64,000 nt of DNA from Candidatus Pyrohabitans jungbluthii (GCA_002010065.2 MTMD02000002.1:352001-416000); one strand, 5' to 3'. Shown: positions 2,071-64,000, counted from the first letter of the stretch. The notes: a model not told the origin generated them from the sequence alone. Numbers and translations are program-made.

Positions 2071-2797
2071 GGTGAGGACAACGCAGGCTGTGATCCTCGC
2101 CGGGGGTAAGGGGAAGAGGCTCCAGCCCTTTACCAGTGCTGTGCCAAAGGCGATACTCCCGGTAAGGGGCAAAGCCGTGATTCTCCACCAGCTCAAAGCG
2201 CTGGAGGAGGCAGGTATTGAGGAGGTGCTGGTGGTTAGGGGCGCGCAGGGAGAGAAAATAGAGCGCTTTCTAAGCTCTCAAGGAAAGAGGGTGAAGTTTA
2301 TCACGCAACCTAAGCCTCTTGGCTCCGCCCACGCTCTCAGTCTGGCGCTCCCCCATCTCCAGGGTGACTTCGTCGCCTTGGCGTGCGATTACGTCTTTCC
2401 GTCCGCGCACCTTAAAGAGCTTCTCCGCATGCACCATTCGGCGAAGGCTGCGGCTACGCTGAGCCTGAAGCGCATGGACAGGGATAAAATAAAAGAAGCC
2501 AGCACCGTTATGCTCAGGGAGGGCAGGGTGGTTAGGATAGTGGAAAAGCCCAGCGAAGAGGAGATACTCAGCGAGATTGCGGCGGCTCCGCTATATGTTT
2601 TCAGCCCGCAAGCCAAGCCCTTCATCGCCAGCGTTGAGGTCTCGCCTCGAGGAGAGTATGAGATTCCCAGCGCGATTCAGAACATGATAAACGCCGGTTT
2701 AGAGGTTCGCGGAGTGCTCACACAGGAGTGGGCACACCTCTCGCGCTGGCAGGACCTGCTCAGGCTGAACTTTCCCTATCTCGCAGACTACCTCTAA
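2060..2797 (+). CDS. Sugar-phosphate nucleotidyltransferase family protein
   Basis: VILAGGKGKRLQP, PK, Q..PLGSAHA, VEKP, SPRGEYEI. Confidence 0.85.
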   Translation: METEVRTTQAVILAGGKGKRLQPFTSAVPKAILPVRGKAVILHQLKALEEAGIEEVLVVRGAQGEKIERFLSSQGKRVKFITQPKPLGSAHALSLALPHLQGDFVALACDYVFPSAHLKELLRMHHSAKAAATLSLKRMDRDKIKEASTVMLREGRVVRIVEKPSEEEILSEIAAAPLYVFSPQAKPFIASVEVSPRGEYEIPSAIQNMINAGLEVRGVLTQEWAHLSRWQDLLRLNFPYLADYL

Positions 2798-3348
2798 TAC
2801 TCAAGCTTATCCAGCATCTCCCGCAATCGCGTGAGTCTCGCGGAGAAGCCCTCCCATTCCCCAAGCTCTATCGGCTTATCCAGCGCATCTGAGAAATTCA
2901 ACCTCAGAAAGTGGCTGTAGTGCTGGTGGTACTCCAGAGCAAGGTCGAAGTAGCGCATCTCAAGCTTCTTGGGCGGGTGGTACAGGAGCTTTATGTCTTC
3001 CTCAAGCTCAGCCGCCAGGGTTTTAATCTCAGCCAAAATGCGACCTGCCACCCTCTCCCAGGCAACCTCCTCAAAACCCCGCTTGGTTAAACCCTCCTCC
3101 AGTAGGGCCTTTTTAACCTCCACCTTTGAATCGCCCTCAAAATTAGGTCCATGCACAAAAGCCAAGCCACGAAGGGTGCTTTCCTCTGGCTCAAGTGCAA
3201 GAAGCACCTTATCTTTAGCGAGGTTCTCAAGGTTCCTGTTCAGCGTCTCGCGGTTAACCTCGCCCTTTATCCTTGAAATTACCTTTTCCGCCTCTTCTGG
3301 AGAAAAAAGAAATAGTTCGCTGGCGATGGCAAGGATGAGCTCTCTCAT
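2794..3348 (-). CDS. Hypothetical protein
   Basis: 184-aa ORF with host-like composition, 4-nt overlap with upstream gene. Confidence 0.6.
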   Translation of the reverse strand: MRELILAIASELFLFSPEEAEKVISRIKGEVNRETLNRNLENLAKDKVLLALEPEESTLRGLAFVHGPNFEGDSKVEVKKALLEEGLTKRGFEEVAWERVAGRILAEIKTLAAELEEDIKLLYHPPKKLEMRYFDLALEYHQHYSHFLRLNFSDALDKPIELGEWEGFSARLTRLREMLDKLEY

Positions 3349-57339: not shown

Positions 57340-57707
57340 TTTTTGATTGGTATCCACTGCTCCGGTGCGTTGCCACAGGCTTGCCTGTTTGTGATGTACC
57401 CACGGTAGCATTCGTCCGAGTACATGCCATATGGTAGCTTTACCTCCACCCATACATGTTCTACGAGGATTTTCTTGTTGGATAACTCAGCCGGTACATA
57501 ATTCTCCCATAATAGTTGTAGGGCTTCTTCCGTTGAGTTGACGCCCAGGACCATCTGCATGTACTCAGGTTCGACTTCTACTGTTCCAATCACAAACCTT
57601 GTTTGATATCCCGATGCCCTTAGTAAATCACTCAATAAGGCAGCCTGGTCGAAGTCGTTGCCTGCTTTCTCCCACATCGTCCACAGCGAGCCCTTCATGT
57701 AGCCGCC
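57340..57707 (-). pseudogene. Isolated transglutaminase-like domain fragment
   Basis: KGS..T....GNDFDQAALL..LLRASG...RFV.G ... EHVWVEV ... WIP, then runs antisense into nadE. Confidence 0.7.
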
Positions 57708-57767
57708 ACCTCTATTGCAATGTTAATATATTCATATTATTTTATTTAATTATCTGAAGAAAATCTC

Positions 57768-58238
57768 CTATTTTTCCAATAACCGTATAAAATAGATAGC
57801 TAGACCCATTATTACATAAAAAATACCCAATATTCCCACAATATCCAAATCTTCAGGTTTCAGTCCATATTGTAATGAATCATAAATAAAGAGCAGTGCC
57901 CAAGGAGACATAATAAATAAAAGTAATAATATCACTTTTTTTAATGTCCCGATTGCTTTTTTTACTTCTGGGTTCTCTCTTATGGGCTTTCTATAGTATT
58001 CTTCAAACTCTTCTGGATACTTTCGTGGAAAAATGAATGTTATGAATAACCCAAATAGCACCACAGTAATACCAATAGAAAATGTTAAAATATTATCCCA
58101 CCGATGAGTAAATTCTTCTCCTGTGATTATATGATATGAACTACTGAAAATAATCAAAACCATTAAAAAAACGAATAGAAAATAAGTCATTAAATATTGC
58201 CAGCTGACAAATTTTTCCATTGTTTTCTTTTTAATCAC
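57768..58238 (-). CDS. Four-TM membrane protein, putative immunity protein 4
   Basis: AT-rich; FIFPRKYPEEFEEY motif shared with three paralogs; follows a toxin-like tip. Confidence 0.65.
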   Translation of the reverse strand: MIKKKTMEKFVSWQYLMTYFLFVFLMVLIIFSSSYHIITGEEFTHRWDNILTFSIGITVVLFGLFITFIFPRKYPEEFEEYYRKPIRENPEVKKAIGTLKKVILLLLFIMSPWALLFIYDSLQYGLKPEDLDIVGILGIFYVIMGLAIYFIRLLEK

Positions 58239-58241
58239 TTG

Positions 58242-58496
58242 TTAGTCACCCCATCTACCTTTAGCCCATCTTGCCAGTCTATCAATACCTTTAGAGGCAA
58301 GATAGGCGCCACCGATTACCATTGCCCCGGCAGCAATCGCTGGTGCTGTAGCCAAACCAGCTCCTGCAATAGCTCCCATAGCCAGATACGAGCCCACCAC
58401 AACACCGTATTTTCCTGCTCCTGCAACAGCGTCAATAACTGCATTATTATATTGACCATTATCGAGGTCTCTTTTTTGAGGACAGCAGACAGACAT
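58242..58496 (-). CDS. Orphan C-terminal tip (putative toxin module 4)
   Basis: DLDNGQYNNAVIDAVAGAGK then Gly/Ala-rich hydrophobic hairpin; homologous to the ends of the 59003 and 61088 ORFs. Confidence 0.6.
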   Translation of the reverse strand: MSVCCPQKRDLDNGQYNNAVIDAVAGAGKYGVVVGSYLAMGAIAGAGLATAPAIAAGAMVIGGAYLASKGIDRLARWAKGRWGD

Positions 58497-58505
58497 TTAT
58501 CCTCC

Positions 58506-58994
58506 CTATTTTTCTATTTGATGAATATGATATAACCCCATTCCACAAATCACTGCAACTGCGATAATGTCAAATATTATATATCGGTCAATGTCTTTAA
58601 CCCCTTTTGGTGAAATGAGTAGTACAAATAGCACAAATCCTATGAGAATTAATGGCAGCCCCACCAGCGCTCTTTTTACACCTTTGAAGTCATAATTTTC
58701 TTTTACATGTTTTTTATATAATTCAAAATCTTCTGGGTATCTTTTAGGGAAAATCACGGTAAAAAAAAGTGCAAAAGAGAGAGCTATGACGTACAAAAAG
58801 TATGAGATCGTAGCTCTTATATCTAGCAAATAGTCACCAGTAAAACTATGATATGCCGCAAAAAAGCCGATGGAAAAAATTCCCAATGATATCAGAATTG
58901 GAGAGAGTCGTTTTTCTAATCTGATGAATTTATTTATATCTGATTTAGGATTTCGTTTATTTTTAGTTCTTCTATTTTGCACCATTTTAATCAC
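58506..58994 (-). CDS. Four-TM membrane protein, putative immunity protein 3
   Basis: VIFPKRYPEDFELY motif; directly after the 59003 ORF. Confidence 0.65.
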   Translation of the reverse strand: MIKMVQNRRTKNKRNPKSDINKFIRLEKRLSPILISLGIFSIGFFAAYHSFTGDYLLDIRATISYFLYVIALSFALFFTVIFPKRYPEDFELYKKHVKENYDFKGVKRALVGLPLILIGFVLFVLLISPKGVKDIDRYIIFDIIAVAVICGMGLYHIHQIEK

Positions 58995-59002
58995 TCCATT
59001 AT

Positions 59003-60582
59003 CTAAGACTTAGCCCATTCCGTTGCATAATCAATCCCTTTATCAACGGCATAACTTGCCACTACAACTAATGCTACTGCTGGTAAACTGGATGCAGTTA
59101 TACCTGCCAAAACTGCAATTGCTCCTATTTTTGCAACGCCTGCAGCAATATCAATAGCTGCATTTCTCTTATTTCCTTCTTCAAGGTCCTTTTTTACCTT
59201 TACATATGTGTCATGTATAACTAACCCAGCAGCCAATAATCCAAGTCCTCTCTTTACCCACTTAGCTTTACTGGTGAACGACTCCAGGGACTTTGCTTCG
59301 CTGTATGCCGCCTTAGCTGCGCGGCTGCTTTCTTTAAACTTGGCAAGGTATTCCCTGCCCTTAGGTGTATCTCCATACCTGTTTGCCCACTTCTTGTATG
59401 CTCCTGCCCTACCCCTCTCGGAGAGGTATTCCTTCTTCTTTGCTATCGACTGAGAGTTAGACCTGAACTCTGCAGTAGAGACCATGAAGTCTGCAACACC
59501 CATGCCCAGCTCGTAGTCAGGCGAGGAGGTGTCGATAACCCTGTTGCCGTACCTGCTCAGCCTCCGCTTTAGCGCATCGCCATCGCTTGCCTGGTAGTTC
59601 CTCACGTAGTTTTCTACGCTGTTTGGCTGCCTGGACTCGTAGTACTCCTTCTGGGAGTACGTCTCCCCGCTGCCGCCGTGTATCACATTCCCCAGGTCGT
59701 CGCCGATCATCCAGGCGTTGGCGCCAGTGGTCGGGTCTATAACGAGCCAGCCAACGCCGGTCCAGTTGCCTATAACTAAAGAGCGAGCGGGGACCAAAAC
59801 CTCAAGCCCCTGGTTTACGGCGTTGCGGATCGCCTCTCTGGCGGTAGCAGGTATCTCAAGGGTTTCGATTTTATCGGCGTTGGCAGAGGTGATGCGGTAA
59901 ATCGGCACTCCACCCCTTGCTGCTATCTCGAAGATGTTTACGGTGGAAACGCCTGAGGCGTTGTAGAAGTACTCGAAGGCCTGCTTTTCCCACGATGAAG
60001 AGATACCGCCAGCCATGAGGGCGAAGGCTCTTCTTAAGTCTTTATCGCCCTGGAGGGAGAGCACATTCCTCGCCACGTCGATGTGCGCAAAGCTCGGCTC
60101 TATAGCTGTGGGTATGCTCCCGGCATAGGCGGTTTCAAATTTGTAGCCGAAGACCGCCACCGCCGGCGAGGAGCGCCACCACCTGACGCCCATGCTCTCT
60201 GCGAGCATCTGGTAGTTAAGGTCGCTCATGGAGAAGTAGGTAAGGGCATTTAGGGCAAGGTAGCCACCATAGCTCCTGTCAAGGAGCATGTCACCCAAAT
60301 CAAAGGCTATGGCATAGTAGTTGCCAACCTGTAGTGGAGAGGTCACCACCTCACGCATGTTGGGCGTGGTGATGGTGATTTGAAGCTCCTGCCTCGTGCC
60401 AAAGTGGAGGCGTTACCTATGGCTATGATTATGGAGTCAAACATGAGGATGGGCCTGAAGTCGAGGAGGTAAGCCGGAAGGTCGGTGAGGGAAGCCTGGG
60501 CGTTGACAAGCTCGGCAATGTCTTCATTGGCAGGGACGTAGTCGAGGGTTAGCTGCTTGCCAACGGTCTCCACTGCGGCCAT
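59003..60582 (-). pseudogene. 5'-truncated, frameshifted cassette: conserved core plus variable tip (putative toxin module 3)
   Basis: ORFs 60343-60582 and 59003-60358 align consecutively to the 61088 ORF (QLTLDYVPAN, VGNYYAI, GVRWWR.SPA, WTGVGWLVIDP, GGSG); frameshift near 60405. Confidence 0.75.
59736..59755. repeat. 20-bp exact direct repeat, copy 1 (copy 2 at 61902-61921)
   Basis: TCTATAACGAGCCAGCCAAC at both positions. Confidence 0.85.
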
Positions 60583-60612
60583 CGAGTATCAGCTCCGCTA
60601 AAGTCAAATGGT

Positions 60613-61095
60613 TCATTCTTCTAGTAATTTCTTTAAAAATCTTCGAGCTAGTAATAGCATAATAGTCCCAAAACCAGATTCAATGATAAGTCTGTCGTTT
60701 TTGCTTCCAATTATATCTCTAAAGAAAATATTAAGTATCACCAAAATAATAAAGCCCCCACCTATAATAACTAAAAGGAAATTTATTATTTTTATAGCAT
60801 TTTTGATACCCTCTTGTCCTTCAGGGCTACTTTTAACTAACGATACGTATTTTTTTGTAAGTCTTGGGAATTGCCTTGGAAAGACGAAATTCAAATATAA
60901 TAACAAAATTATCATAAAAATCAAGAAAATTAAAAGTATATTATCCGCCAATTCACTTTCAAATTTGCCGTGCTTGTAAACCTGGTAATTGTAAATTACA
61001 AGAACTAGTAGCCCAATAGTAGGAATAATCGTATTTAGAAAATCAAATAATGGCTCATATTTTTTCAATATCCTCTCTATTTTTTCCTCATTCAT
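60613..61095 (-). CDS. Four-TM membrane protein, putative immunity protein 2
   Basis: FVFPRQFP motif; start overlaps the stop of the upstream ORF by 8 nt. Confidence 0.65.
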   Translation of the reverse strand: MNEEKIERILKKYEPLFDFLNTIIPTIGLLVLVIYNYQVYKHGKFESELADNILLIFLIFMIILLLYLNFVFPRQFPRLTKKYVSLVKSSPEGQEGIKNAIKIINFLLVIIGGGFIILVILNIFFRDIIGSKNDRLIIESGFGTIMLLLARRFLKKLLEE

Positions 61096-63229
61096 ATCTC
61101 AGTGCTCCATAAATGTCTTTTACACCATCAGCCAGTCCATCAATTATTTTATGTGCAAGATACTCACCTGCAGAAATAGCGGCACCAGCAGCTGGCCCAA
61201 CAGCTTTCCCTACACCTGGTATCTTTTTCACTTTTCTCGCTACCATTATATCTGCATAAAATGCAGCTCCTGTAATAGCTCCTTTAGCAACTCCAGCGCT
61301 AAAATCGACGCCAGCATTGAAATACTTACGTTCTTCTAGGTCAGCTATTACATTATCAGCTGTTTTCTGTGCAATTAAGCCAAGACCTGTGACAGTCAGA
61401 ACTTTATTGAAAACTTTTGCTCCTGTGCTCAACGCACCTTGTGCTCTTGCATTTTTTATTGCTCGGGTAGCTGCTTTTTCAAATTCTATAGCTTTATCTA
61501 TATATTTTTTAAAATCGTCGCCATAACTTCCTGCGATGTCTGCCATCCTTCTGTACTCGATGGCGTTGAGGGTATTGTCCACATAATCTTTAATGCTTGA
61601 GGCGAATCTATAATCCTCCACATAGGACATCGTCTTAAAATATATTCCTCCTCCAAGTAGGACCTCCTCAACAGGCAAATTTATTTGCTGGTCACCTTCG
61701 GGATTTACATCTTTTATCTTTTTGATAGTATTCTCCACTCCTTTTTCTTTCTCCTCTTGAACTCTTTTTTGTTGGTTTTTATTAGATTCGACGGTGCTGA
61801 ATTTTACTGTCTCTTGCCCGTGGTAAATATTTCCACTACCGCCGTTTATTATTGTGCCCAGTTCATCACTGAGCATCCATGCTGATGCTCCTGTAGCTGG
61901 ATCTATAACGAGCCAGCCAACACCTGTCCAGCCGTCACGAGTGATCTGGCGGGAGGGTACATATACTTCATACCCATTATTGACAAAGCTAAAAATTGAC
62001 TCACGTACCTTTTCAGGAAGATCAAGCTGGCTTATGACTTCTATGTTACCTGAGTTGAGATAGTAAATTGGAATTCCATTCTGGTTTGCAATTTCTAAAA
62101 TATTCGCTGTAGAAATTCCAGAGACGTTATAAAATAGCTCAAATATTTTGCTCTCCCAAATTGAAGAAAAACTACCTGCCTGAATAGCAAAAGCAAGTTT
62201 CATATCATTTCTGCCTTGAATTGACAAAATATTTCTAATCACATCAATGTGTGAATATCCTTCTGTTATCGTGGTGGGTATACTAACCACATACTCAATA
62301 TTGAAGGTATGCCCAAAGACTGCTATAGCAGGTGAATTTCTCCACCATCTCACGCCCAAGGCATCTGCGGCAATATCATTGCTGATATCCAACATTCCGA
62401 AGTAGTTGCTTAAGGTGAGGGACATGTAACCACCTATGTTGTGGTCAAGAACCATCGTTCCTCCTTCTATGATGCCTTCGAAGGTTCTATTCCAAAGCCT
62501 TTCTATGTGCTCTGAAGGCATTTTTCCCAGATCAACACCTATAGCGTAGTAATTCCCTACTGTCACCGGAGAAGAAACCACTTCTTTACTATTTGGGGTA
62601 ATTACCGTAATCTGAAGTTCCCCTTCTGCTCCAAACTGAGAAGGTTCACCAACCGCGATTGGAATGGAGTTGAGCATTAAAACAGGCCTAAAGTCGTAGA
62701 GATAGGCAGGGCTTTCATTTAGGAATTCCTGTACATTTGCCAGCTCCGCTATATCGGCATTAGCAGGCACATAATCAAGGGTCAGTTGATTTCCCGCTAA
62801 TATAACGGTGGGAATGTTTATGGAAAGAGTTGTTCTTTGATTTTCAACTACACTGACATTTAAGATGTGAAGGTAGTCGTCCGGAATCTCAGAGTAGCGC
62901 TCAAAGGCAACAAGCGAGTAGGGCAGAGTTCCGGGTATTATATCCGGCTTTACATCCGGCGGCCTGTCAGCGTAGAGTGCCTCTACCTCCTCCTCGGTCA
63001 TGTTCTCCAGCTTGGCACCAACGTTCTCGGCGTACCAAGCGTCGGTGAGGTTCATGAGCTCGCTCACGGCAAGGTCGAGGCCGCTGAAGTTCATGCCTGT
63101 GAAGTAATCCTCGCCGAAGGTGGCGTTCTAAAGGGTTTCGAGGAAGACGCCGGTAAGGTTGTAGTCAATAGCAGCAGCCGGGTAGGGTTTCTTCGGCTTA
63201 TAGGGTACGAAGGCAGGGTCAAGAAGCAT
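61088..63229 (-). pseudogene. 5'-truncated cassette: conserved core plus variable tip (putative toxin module 2), in-frame TAG at 63128-63130
   Basis: 668-aa ORF from 63094 extends in frame to ATG 63229 (MLLDPAFVPY...) across one TAG. Confidence 0.7.
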
Positions 63230-63261
63230 CTTCTTAATCACCTAGTTAGGTATTCTTCTCT

Positions 63262-63311
63262 GTCCATAGTACCCTCCTAATCACCTAATTCGATCACCTG
63301 CTCGTCTTTTT
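63262..63311. repeat. 50-bp direct repeat, copy 1 (copy 2 at 63848-63897)
   Basis: GTCCATAGTACCCTCCTA[A/G]TCACCTAATTC[G/A]ATCACCTGCTCGTCTTTTT, 2 mismatches. Confidence 0.9.
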
Positions 63312-63853
63312 GTATATGAGGCTTGTTCAGCGTCTTCTCTAAAGCCTGCTTTCTTAAACAGGAAATAATCAGCAACTAAAATTACTACTATTAATAGTAG
63401 ACCTACTGAGCGAAGCATATCAGCAGAAACTATCGGCAAACCTTCGGCTAATACTATAAAAAAATTTATTATAGCCACAACTAAGGCAAACGAAATCAAA
63501 AACGCAGTATTTTTTTTATGTTGTCTAAAATTCACACTTTTTTTTCTTTCTTGGACATATAAATAAAACCTCAGTGGATGTTTTTTAGGAAAGAAAAAAT
63601 AAAACCTTATCATGTCAAGAACTCCAATTAATAAAATTATTATTAAAAATTGTAGAAATTCAGGTGGTAAGAAAACTATTTTGCCAAAATGAATATGATA
63701 ATATGCCATAATTATGAAATAACCTGTAACAACTAACCTCCCCAAAAGCTTGTAATTGTAGTAGTTTTCCACCATTTTCTTTGCTTTGGCAAGTTCTTGC
63801 ATGTATTCTTCTTTTGTAACTCCGAATTTTTTCATTATCGCTTTCTCGTCCAT
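63281..63853 (-). CDS. Four-TM membrane protein, putative immunity protein 1
   Basis: FFFPKKHP..FYLY motif; SD GGAGG; follows a toxin-like tip. Confidence 0.65.
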   Translation of the reverse strand: MDEKAIMKKFGVTKEEYMQELAKAKKMVENYYNYKLLGRLVVTGYFIIMAYYHIHFGKIVFLPPEFLQFLIIILLIGVLDMIRFYFFFPKKHPLRFYLYVQERKKSVNFRQHKKNTAFLISFALVVAIINFFIVLAEGLPIVSADMLRSVGLLLIVVILVADYFLFKKAGFREDAEQASYTKRRAGDRIR

Positions 63854-63862
63854 AGTACCCTC

Positions 63863-64000
63863 CTAGTCACCTAATTCAATCACCTGCTCGTCTTTTTCTA
63901 CAGGTGGTTTGTCGAGTCTTGTTTTGATATACTCTGTACCTTTCTTAATAGTTTCATCAATAAATAGACTCGCACCTACTGTTACACCGGTTGCTAAAAA
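63863..64000 (-). CDS. 3' end of putative toxin module 1 (starts outside window)
   Basis: FLATGVTVGASLFIDETIKKGTEYIKTRL...LGD*, resembling VASYAVDKGIDYATEWAK of module 3. Confidence 0.6.
   Translation of the reverse strand, partial: FLATGVTVGASLFIDETIKKGTEYIKTRLDKPPVEKDEQVIELGD

Follow-up and report, generated by a model that had tools for sequence, protein, structure and literature searches.

Positions 57340 to 64000 of the window analysed here, a stretch of 64,000 nucleotides (nt) from Candidatus Pyrohabitans jungbluthii (genus filed under Hydrothermarchaeota), hold part of an island in which an intact carrier gene with a variable C-terminal tip is followed by truncated carrier alleles, every tip or tip remnant standing directly before the gene of a small membrane protein, its partner. 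At a probability of about 0.6, it is an archaeal polymorphic toxin/immunity island, with tips that would form pores and partners that would protect against the cognate tip by the mechanism proposed below. In the source genome (G000) the window is G000:C2:352001-416000, so that G000:C2 positions equal window positions plus 352000; coordinates above 64000 are extrapolated. The full-length carrier is termed the parent, and its tip and allele are presumed to be the expressed ones.

According to the proposed mechanism, an operon of three overlapping genes would give rise to two giant surface proteins and a Sec-exported carrier, which would display its C-terminal tip via a flexible GGS linker. The tip would be an all-helical domain ending in a hydrophobic hairpin; it would enter a neighbouring cell's membrane and form a pore there that kills the cell or arrests it, like the pore-forming colicins, presumably upon contact between the two cells. 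The producer would be protected by the protein with four transmembrane (TM) segments encoded 3-9 nt downstream, which may bind the hairpin of its own tip within the membrane. New C-terminal halves, together with their own partner genes, would arrive by recombination in the conserved part of the carrier, and each entry would drive the allele before it downstream, leaving an orphan truncated at the 5' end whose partner gene may stay intact as a guard against kin still using that tip.

The features of the island that fall within the window are as follows, with lengths in amino acids (aa).

57340..64000, minus strand: part of the island within the window (whole island 18,351 bp, on to extrapolated position 75690)
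57349..57705, minus strand: terminal carrier fragment, parent aa 325-443, transglutaminase domain (blastn and Pfam PF01841)
57768..58238, minus strand: partner 4, 156 aa, four hydrophobic segments, GC 0.29, candidate immunity protein
58242..58496, minus strand: tip remnant 4, 84 aa, Gly/Ala-rich hydrophobic hairpin end only, aligning with the C-terminal end of the longer tips
58506..58994, minus strand: partner 3, 162 aa, four hydrophobic segments, GC 0.32
59003..60582, minus strand: orphan 2, 5'-truncated carrier allele (parent aa ~583 to end), frameshifted; core 59669-60582, tip 59003-59668; open reading frames (ORFs) 59003-60358 (451 aa) and a frameshifted 5' piece, 60343-60582
60613..61095, minus strand: partner 2, 160 aa, GC 0.29, overlapping the orphan 1 stop by 8 nt
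61088..63230, minus strand: orphan 1, 5'-truncated carrier allele (ORF 61088-63094, 668 aa, parent aa ~490 to end)
63263..63326, minus strand: scar, second copy of the junction 'tip end + stop + GGAGGG + ATGGAC'
63281..63853, minus strand: partner 1, 190 aa, GC 0.31, partner of the full-length carrier's tip
63863..64000, minus strand: last 45 codons and stop of the full-length carrier (tip end); the gene runs to extrapolated position 67429

The initial annotation, made from the window alone, had described four cassettes of a tip and a four-TM partner on this strand, and all four are present where it had placed them (ORF listing, 57768-63853). Its description of the partners as small, AT-rich and multi-TM was borne out by their 156-190 aa, their three to four hydrophobic segments (Kyte-Doolittle window) and their GC content of 0.29-0.32, against 0.51 for the genome. 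The core motifs that it regarded as shared were found as well, and in the alignment the sequences part after GGS. What it listed as the first tip, 63863+, is the 3' end of an intact gene of 1188 codons running beyond the window. The tips, which it called variable, are nevertheless related to each other: the G000 tips, P0002, P0004 and P0063 can be aligned over about 200 aa, and the tips are thus one fast-diverging family rather than unrelated domains. The coupling of tips with small genes is consistent, as a gene of the partner family directly follows six of six tips or remnants, four of them here and two in the metagenome contig L051, described below.

The orphans have decayed to different degrees. 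Homology of orphan 1 extends upstream to parent aa ~442 via two TAG stops, while the frameshift of orphan 2 is a matter of 1 nt near 60403, behind which an extra G is found in the public runs X5, X6 and X7 and not in X1. Since the frameshift is present in the source-like run X1 and absent from the other three, it is real. The fragment that closes the array at nadE is transglutaminase-like, as had been noted (Pfam Transglut_core, PF01841, E 3.8e-07); it has no start context, and its homology ends 10 nt from the nadE stop. It shares 84% of nucleotides with the parent over 357 nt (blastn) and yet 94% of amino acids, which indicates that the change has been mostly synonymous.

A full-length parent gene bearing a signal peptide, which the initial annotation expected beyond position 64000, does exist: it occupies 63863-67429, has no internal stops and encodes 1188 aa with a hydrophobic N-terminus. 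An N-terminal trafficking signal, one of the criteria by which polymorphic toxins are recognised, is thus predicted in the carrier, the organization of which is given below.

aa 5-23: predicted signal peptide, hydrophobic, then AYA-A (hydrophobicity window)
about 280 aa thereafter: spacer, charged helical and Pro/Lys-rich
aa 308-447: transglutaminase domain lacking the catalytic Cys (Pfam PF01841, E 3e-11)
aa ~448-909: core of about 460 aa, no family model
aa 907-909: GGS junction, motif GWLVLDPATGANAWMIADELGTVINGGS
aa 910-1188: tip, 279 aa

The carrier reads G-N-D at the position of G-x-C, which we take to be the catalytic consensus of transglutaminases. The His and Asp of the site are retained, and in the 52 of 152 family members matched by the pattern the Cys position is occupied by D, A, S or N, never by C. 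An AlphaFold2 model of parent aa 290-930, built on 69 sequences, is predicted with a mean local confidence (pLDDT) of 86.8 and a global score (pTM) of 0.85, and places the GGS in a low-confidence linker. The transglutaminase part of this model matches PeiW (8jx4_A; Z 10.5, root-mean-square deviation 3.7, 132 aligned residues in VIA-align), PeiP (Z 10.1) and TglA (Z 10.0). The core gave only weak helical rows against the PDB, at Z <=6.5 (VIA-align, within a 641-residue model that is too long to serve as a domain test), and nothing above threshold in Pfam, NCBIfam or PADLOC. Foldseek of the carrier model against the PDB returned nothing at E <= 1e-3, and phmmer of the transglutaminase segment found no match among PDB sequences. 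Two more transglutaminase-domain matches occur in the genome, at G000:C14:13113-13406 and 167686-167895 (45% and 31%), both without the core.

The same scaffold carries recognised toxins elsewhere. A profile search of 1.84 billion representatives returned 7441 proteins at E <= 1e-3, of which 1834 reach E <= 1e-30, although the profile also covered the transglutaminase domain and matches in the lower tiers may be to this domain only. For this reason the 149 representatives among the matches listed were scored with a hidden Markov model (HMM) of four archaeal cores alone: the core was found in 147 of them, covered to at least 70% in 138 and followed to its end in 146, and 141 have a tail of at least 80 aa beyond it (median 164.5). 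The motif DPxTG..YMISGG.AGG, followed by unrelated sequence, occurs in 77 of 151 proteins (the 149 representatives, P0002 and the window's own P0003). The last 200 residues of the core have a median pairwise identity of 0.37 and the tails one of 0.21, the latter being what we take, without a control, to be the noise level. The expectation that homologues would share the scaffold and differ in their C-termini is therefore confirmed by this search of representatives.

Among 36 members picked for long tails, and hence not a random sample, all have Transglut_core, and in 10 the same junction bears known modules of toxin, pre-toxin or RHS type. These include AHH (2), Tox-REase-5 (1), PT-HINT (3), WHH/colicin-DNase (1), NlpC/P60 (4) and RHS (1), some members having two. 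Two further fusions with prenyltransferase/TED-like toroids and one with A2M domains, also among the long-tailed members, echo the separate genes upstream of the carrier in the island. Relatives appear in their sources under names such as 'transglutaminase-like putative cysteine protease', 'RHS repeat-associated protein' and Deltaproteobacteria metagenome-assembled genome. A genome from a different family of this class has the transglutaminase and the core at the N-terminal end of an ORF of >4000 aa with a GC content of 0.34 (L040 7796-20000, in G036:C39).

From the perspective of its evolution, the array records exchanges of carrier alleles that can be followed in a sister genome and in metagenome contigs, as the initial annotation had predicted for tip swapping: an orphan here is the presumably expressed allele there. 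The sister contig G001:C6, on another contig than the nadE site, holds the same three-gene module and ends inside the tip. Compared with the parent, the carrier there shows 78-94% identity in each window of 50 residues as far as aa 450, 44-64% over aa 451-905 and 26-28% beyond. At the DNA level, its nt 1-1394 match the parent (85.7%), nt 1753-2038 and 2151-3043 match orphan 2 of G000 (88.1%), and nt 1333-2447 match orphan 1 (69.5%), the first 50 residues of which are 96% identical to the sister carrier. These matches indicate that the presumably expressed allele of the sister persists in G000 in pieces, namely the 5' end of orphan 1 and orphan 2, with the remainder of orphan 1 and with partner 2 lying between them. 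A joined form like that of G001 is present in X6 and X7 contigs, where 60551 is linked to 62919 with 134 other letters between. The simplest reading would be that a new C-terminal half, accompanied by its partner gene, came in twice in succession, once near aa 545 and once near aa 442-464, the orphans being displaced alleles that each entry moved further downstream. Such displacement, which is known from Rhs and CdiA loci, explains why the cassettes shorten along the array.

Further alleles were found in relatives. A third allele occupies the same nadE site in L051; its carrier is identical to P0173, and the order of the parts is as follows.

VWA gene, 3' part
1650-aa repeat protein
1162-aa carrier
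163-aa four-TM partner, GC 0.32
tip-end remnant, frameshifted
partner-4-like gene (69/154 residues identical to partner 4)
duplicated partner start
nadE

Compared with the parent, P0173 is 67% identical in the N-terminal part, 94% in the transglutaminase domain, 51% in the core and 11-21% in the tip. The tip end of another full-length protein, P0169, is 54% identical to tip remnant 4, and the segments of five full-length alleles are incongruent. In G001:C20, a paralogous locus whose carrier shares 33% of its residues with the parent, the layout is repeated with other tips and other TM partners, two of two tips standing directly before genes for TM proteins of other families; its 244-aa orphan repeats the last stretch of the core of its carrier (comparison by eye). 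This array is likewise closed by a mid-carrier fragment (L030 12060-12467), and between the latter and the last partner lie small genes of 91 and 73 aa resembling a toxin-antitoxin pair (L030 11577-12058).

Loss of the carrier was found alongside its replacement. An X5 contig of 26.7 kb, at least 99% identical to G000 over the orphan array, has 12,054 bases swapped for 60 letters, with the same joint in X6 and X7. The replaced stretch comprises most of the VWA gene, the gene of the 2000-aa protein, the carrier and nearly all of partner 1, so that the X5 strain retains partners 2-4 without carrier or surface-protein genes. The left edge of this variant (63311) falls within the scar at 63263-63326, in which some 62 nt ('tip end, stop codon, GGAGGG, ATGGAC') duplicate 63851-63912, at the parent stop; partner 1 takes its last 9 codons from the repeat, after which comes a partner stub of 9 codons. 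A second peculiarity is that the terminal fragment stops at parent aa 443 and the homology of orphan 1 starts at aa 442, a circularly permuted gene order. A circular intermediate opened at carrier aa ~443 was considered as a possible origin, but the gene order is unfit for a single event.

The island itself is an insertion between two convergent genes, as judged from the empty site in G001, G003 and G004, three congeneric genomes in which the nadE stop abuts the stop of a SIS-domain gene. In G000 the SIS-domain gene lies at 75691-76278, which assigns 57340-75690 (18,351 bp) to the insertion. The empty joint also exists in contigs from public runs, where 57336 is joined to 75688 and 18,351 bases are passed over (2 bases being ambiguous); X6 and X7 have it, and X1 has it as a minor form. 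Neither an integrase or transposase gene nor a tRNA gene was seen among the island ORFs.

Decaying duplicates of a surface gene, inert and without present function, would account for orphans that lack starts and signal peptides, for the frameshift in orphan 2 and for the several scars. This explanation is very improbable, as the four partner ORFs are all intact and tightly coupled to the stop codons of the tips, the parent is a stop-free gene of full length, the change in the terminal fragment is mostly synonymous (84% of nucleotides against 94% of amino acids), and the same layout is met again in L051 and G001:C20.

The partners form a family of their own. Although pairwise BLAST among them ranges from E 1e-12 to 0.24, a leave-one-out HMM scores each at 23.7-38.6 bits, compared with 4.3-12.6 for the best of 200 shuffles, which establishes homology beyond composition; the motif FP(K/R)xxP is common to them. 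The four copies in G000 are all in the array, and the partner profile found no other convincing copy in the 38 genomes of the phylum. Two marginal matches (E 0.005 and 0.008) were discounted because they lie inside long ORFs. Among 5.8 billion clusters, the only outside homologue beyond three of the island's own partners is P0168, 53% identical to partner 1; L051 adds two partner-family genes, and an Atlas search with partner 4 gave no named lead. Both the partner family and the tip family are new.

Modelling provides a possible molecular picture of the pairing. For parent tip residues 160-279 with partner 1, the predicted complex has interface scores (ipSAE) of 0.88, 0.01 and 0.88 in three runs, the best of three controls being 0.01. 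Of 80 solved complexes, 58 attain the mark applied to such models, as do 2 of 110 mismatched pairs; the runs have at least 17% of contacts in common, and the pLDDT of the partner is at least 60. The predicted interface sets tip residues 225-258 against all TM helices of the partner, so that the model supports binding of the tip hairpin by partner 1.

The tips share the pattern ...EY...G.AG.Y...ANR.G...KDL..G.Y.NA.ID..AG..K, a Gly/Ala-rich stretch with a central Pro, and Y.A.K.ID, and they end in a Gly/Ala-rich hydrophobic hairpin. Several weak leads connect them with the pore domains of colicins. The third-best PDB match of the tip profile is the colicin Ib pore domain 8iom_A (HMMER, E 0.11), co-linear over 141 aa with hairpin on hairpin; hhalign against eight colicin pore domains gave a probability of 45.7% (E 2.1e-4, 50 columns) in the same register; and a score of 0.86, under the 0.9 line and hence a lead only, was obtained for an Atlas cluster in which 76% of members have PF01024. 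PF01024 itself was not listed by Pfam for any of six tips at E up to 5. Searching longer proteins with the tip profile gave no match, a blank that is weak evidence because P0002 was missed too. The likeness to colicin pore domains is weak and any kinship tentative, but these domains make a good working analogy for what the tips may be. Ahead of the hairpin, an amphipathic helix (positions 151-183 of tip profile A10) is similar to moricin-6, an antimicrobial peptide of insects (E 0.047, 33 residues); the similarity may be due to chance or to a shared membrane-active character.

Tips and partners that each form one fast-diverging family rather than an assortment of enzymes, a predicted contact within the membrane and the lack of any enzymatic toxin domain found in the tips would also suit a non-lethal system of kin recognition, in which the variable tip is passed or shown to a neighbour and the matching four-TM partner signifies 'self', with no pore toxicity. 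The IdsD/IdsE pair of Proteus is a precedent for such self-identity. Nevertheless, recognition of this kind is unlikely here: relatives bear nucleases and cell-wall hydrolases on the same scaffold at the same junction, the variant that keeps partners and has no carrier fits retained protection better than lost identity, and there are the weak colicin-like leads.

Several results weigh against pore-forming toxins protected by cognate partners. One of the three complex runs reached only 0.01, and the similarity of tip ends and that of partners are correlated at Spearman 0.57 with p 0.08 over 10 non-independent pairs, so that covariation of tip and partner is suggestive. The likeness to colicins is not significant in any single test, and the AlphaFold2 model of the orphan 2 tip, although all-helical, has a pLDDT of 51.7, too poor for searching. 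Tips and partners, which the initial annotation could not place in any named family, indeed stay below every threshold of Pfam, NCBIfam and PADLOC. The parent and the orphans now share only about 65-79% of their DNA, which makes present-day swapping within G000 unlikely; the exchange events are historical or took place between strains. Finally, 53 of 74 family tails start with hydrophobic segments, even where a nuclease follows, and the hairpin could accordingly be a generic anchor or translocation element and not the toxic part.

These hydrophobic segments, directly after the junction, also suggest a variable surface protein, in which the hairpin would anchor the carrier in the membrane of its own cell, the partner would act as a dock or insertion helper, and the silent cassettes would serve to vary the surface, for instance as a way of evading viruses for which the protein is a receptor. 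The exposed core differs by about 50% between alleles and the neighbours are giant surface proteins with Ig-like repeats, as such a function would have it. We nonetheless regard surface variation as distinctly unlikely, since variability is greatest in the membrane-embedded end and not in the exposed part, the silent cassettes keep intact partner genes while their carrier parts decay through frameshift, stops and truncation, and relatives bear bona fide toxin modules.

Upstream of the carrier, two genes complete the putative operon, overlapping the carrier and each other by 4 and 8 nt.

67426-73428 (extrapolated), minus strand: 2000-aa surface protein with signal peptide; DUF11, Big_7, Glucodextran_B and CARDB repeats
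73421-75640 (extrapolated), minus strand: ORF of up to 739 aa; alpha-alpha toroid repeats and VWA domain

A regular-expression search of these two proteins found neither a thioester (CGEQ) nor a MIDAS (DxSxS) motif. The first 200 aa of the 2000-aa protein contain a long Gly-rich repeat run (GGxGG...) behind the signal peptide. No genes of type V, VI or VII secretion systems (T5SS, T6SS, T7SS) were seen among those of the island. On the far side of the SIS-domain gene, the block from argH to a helix-turn-helix (HTH) gene (extrapolated 76999-85140) is reversed in order and orientation in G001, G003 and G004 (L026, L027, L028), an inversion beside the island in G000 or in the relatives. The ORFs at 78476-81661 are presumably GatD/GatE, read from the sequence by eye, and the genes of the window are taken to be of archaeal type.

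Antagonism between archaea is little studied, and to our knowledge no archaeal polymorphic toxin has been bench-tested. The locus offers a complete, compact and testable set, consisting of one tip/partner pair of a full-length carrier and three spare pairs, with a conserved junction to mark the tip boundary and natural variants that record allele displacement and carrier-gene loss. The scaffold is common to many uncultured bacteria, and its central domain is without a family model. A broader proposal, tentative and of doubtful standing, is that the inactive transglutaminase, the core of ~460 aa and the junction DPxTG..YMISGG.AGG make up a widespread undescribed toxin-presenting scaffold, the archaeal form of which, with two giant surface proteins, would deliver a distant colicin-like pore former to neighbouring archaea, the variants recording allele displacement and loss of carrier and surface genes. 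If true, such dynamics would be recorded here at the population level for the first time in Archaea. A literature search gave no description of this type of carrier in archaea, although it excluded a 2019 archaeal survey in which the system may be catalogued. It surfaced one experimental case of archaeal antagonism, in the text available a haloarchaeal contractile injection system (PMC11566945).

Three kinds of known systems invite comparison. Pore-forming colicins (E1, K, Ia/Ib, A, B, N and S4), whose immunity proteins have three to four TM segments, resemble the island, whose tips are predicted to be helical and whose partners are candidate immunity proteins, in having a helical domain of ~200 aa with a C-terminal hydrophobic hairpin and a small multi-TM immunity gene adjacent to it, and in the weak co-linear profile matches. 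The hairpin of colicins is contacted by the TM segments of the immunity protein, and the contact predicted here agrees with this. They differ in that the tips have no significant sequence match to them and are fused to a very different carrier, and in that the putative immunity gene here is co-directional and coupled, whereas E1, K, Ia and B, the four colicin loci whose tables list the gene, have it on the opposite strand.

Bacterial Rhs, CdiA and MafB loci carry orphan C-terminal/immunity cassettes, and the island is similar to them in its full-length gene followed by 5'-truncated orphans, each with some conserved core and its own immunity gene (here a candidate one), as well as in its evidence of recombinational displacement. 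Unlike these loci, it has no RHS/YD repeats, no two-partner secretion (TPS)/FhaB domain and no MafB N-domain in the carrier, the orphans or the upstream genes (Pfam scans), and the unit that varies is large: a half-diverged core and a hypervariable tip, together about 740 aa.

The claim that the system is new holds for the tips and partners, while the principle has a bacterial antecedent: polymorphic toxins with an inactive transglutaminase domain in bacteria are already described by Zhang et al. (2012, PMC3482391). In the excerpted text of that paper, the domain directly follows the signal and precedes RHS repeats, the authors propose that it anchors the toxin, and archaeal polymorphic toxins are called rare. 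As far as this excerpt goes, the carrier differs in that its domain starts at aa 308, about 280 aa past the signal peptide, in its core of ~460 aa that has no Pfam model or clear PDB match, in the absence of RHS repeats, in the placement of the tip after a conserved DPxTG..M..GG junction and in its archaeal host. By the same account, the two have in common the signal peptide, the Cys-less fold, the variable C-terminal modules, which are toxins in the bacterial proteins and candidate toxins here, and the downstream immunity or putative immunity genes. A relative of the carrier, P0129, has the transglutaminase module followed by RHS repeats, as in the bacterial toxins.

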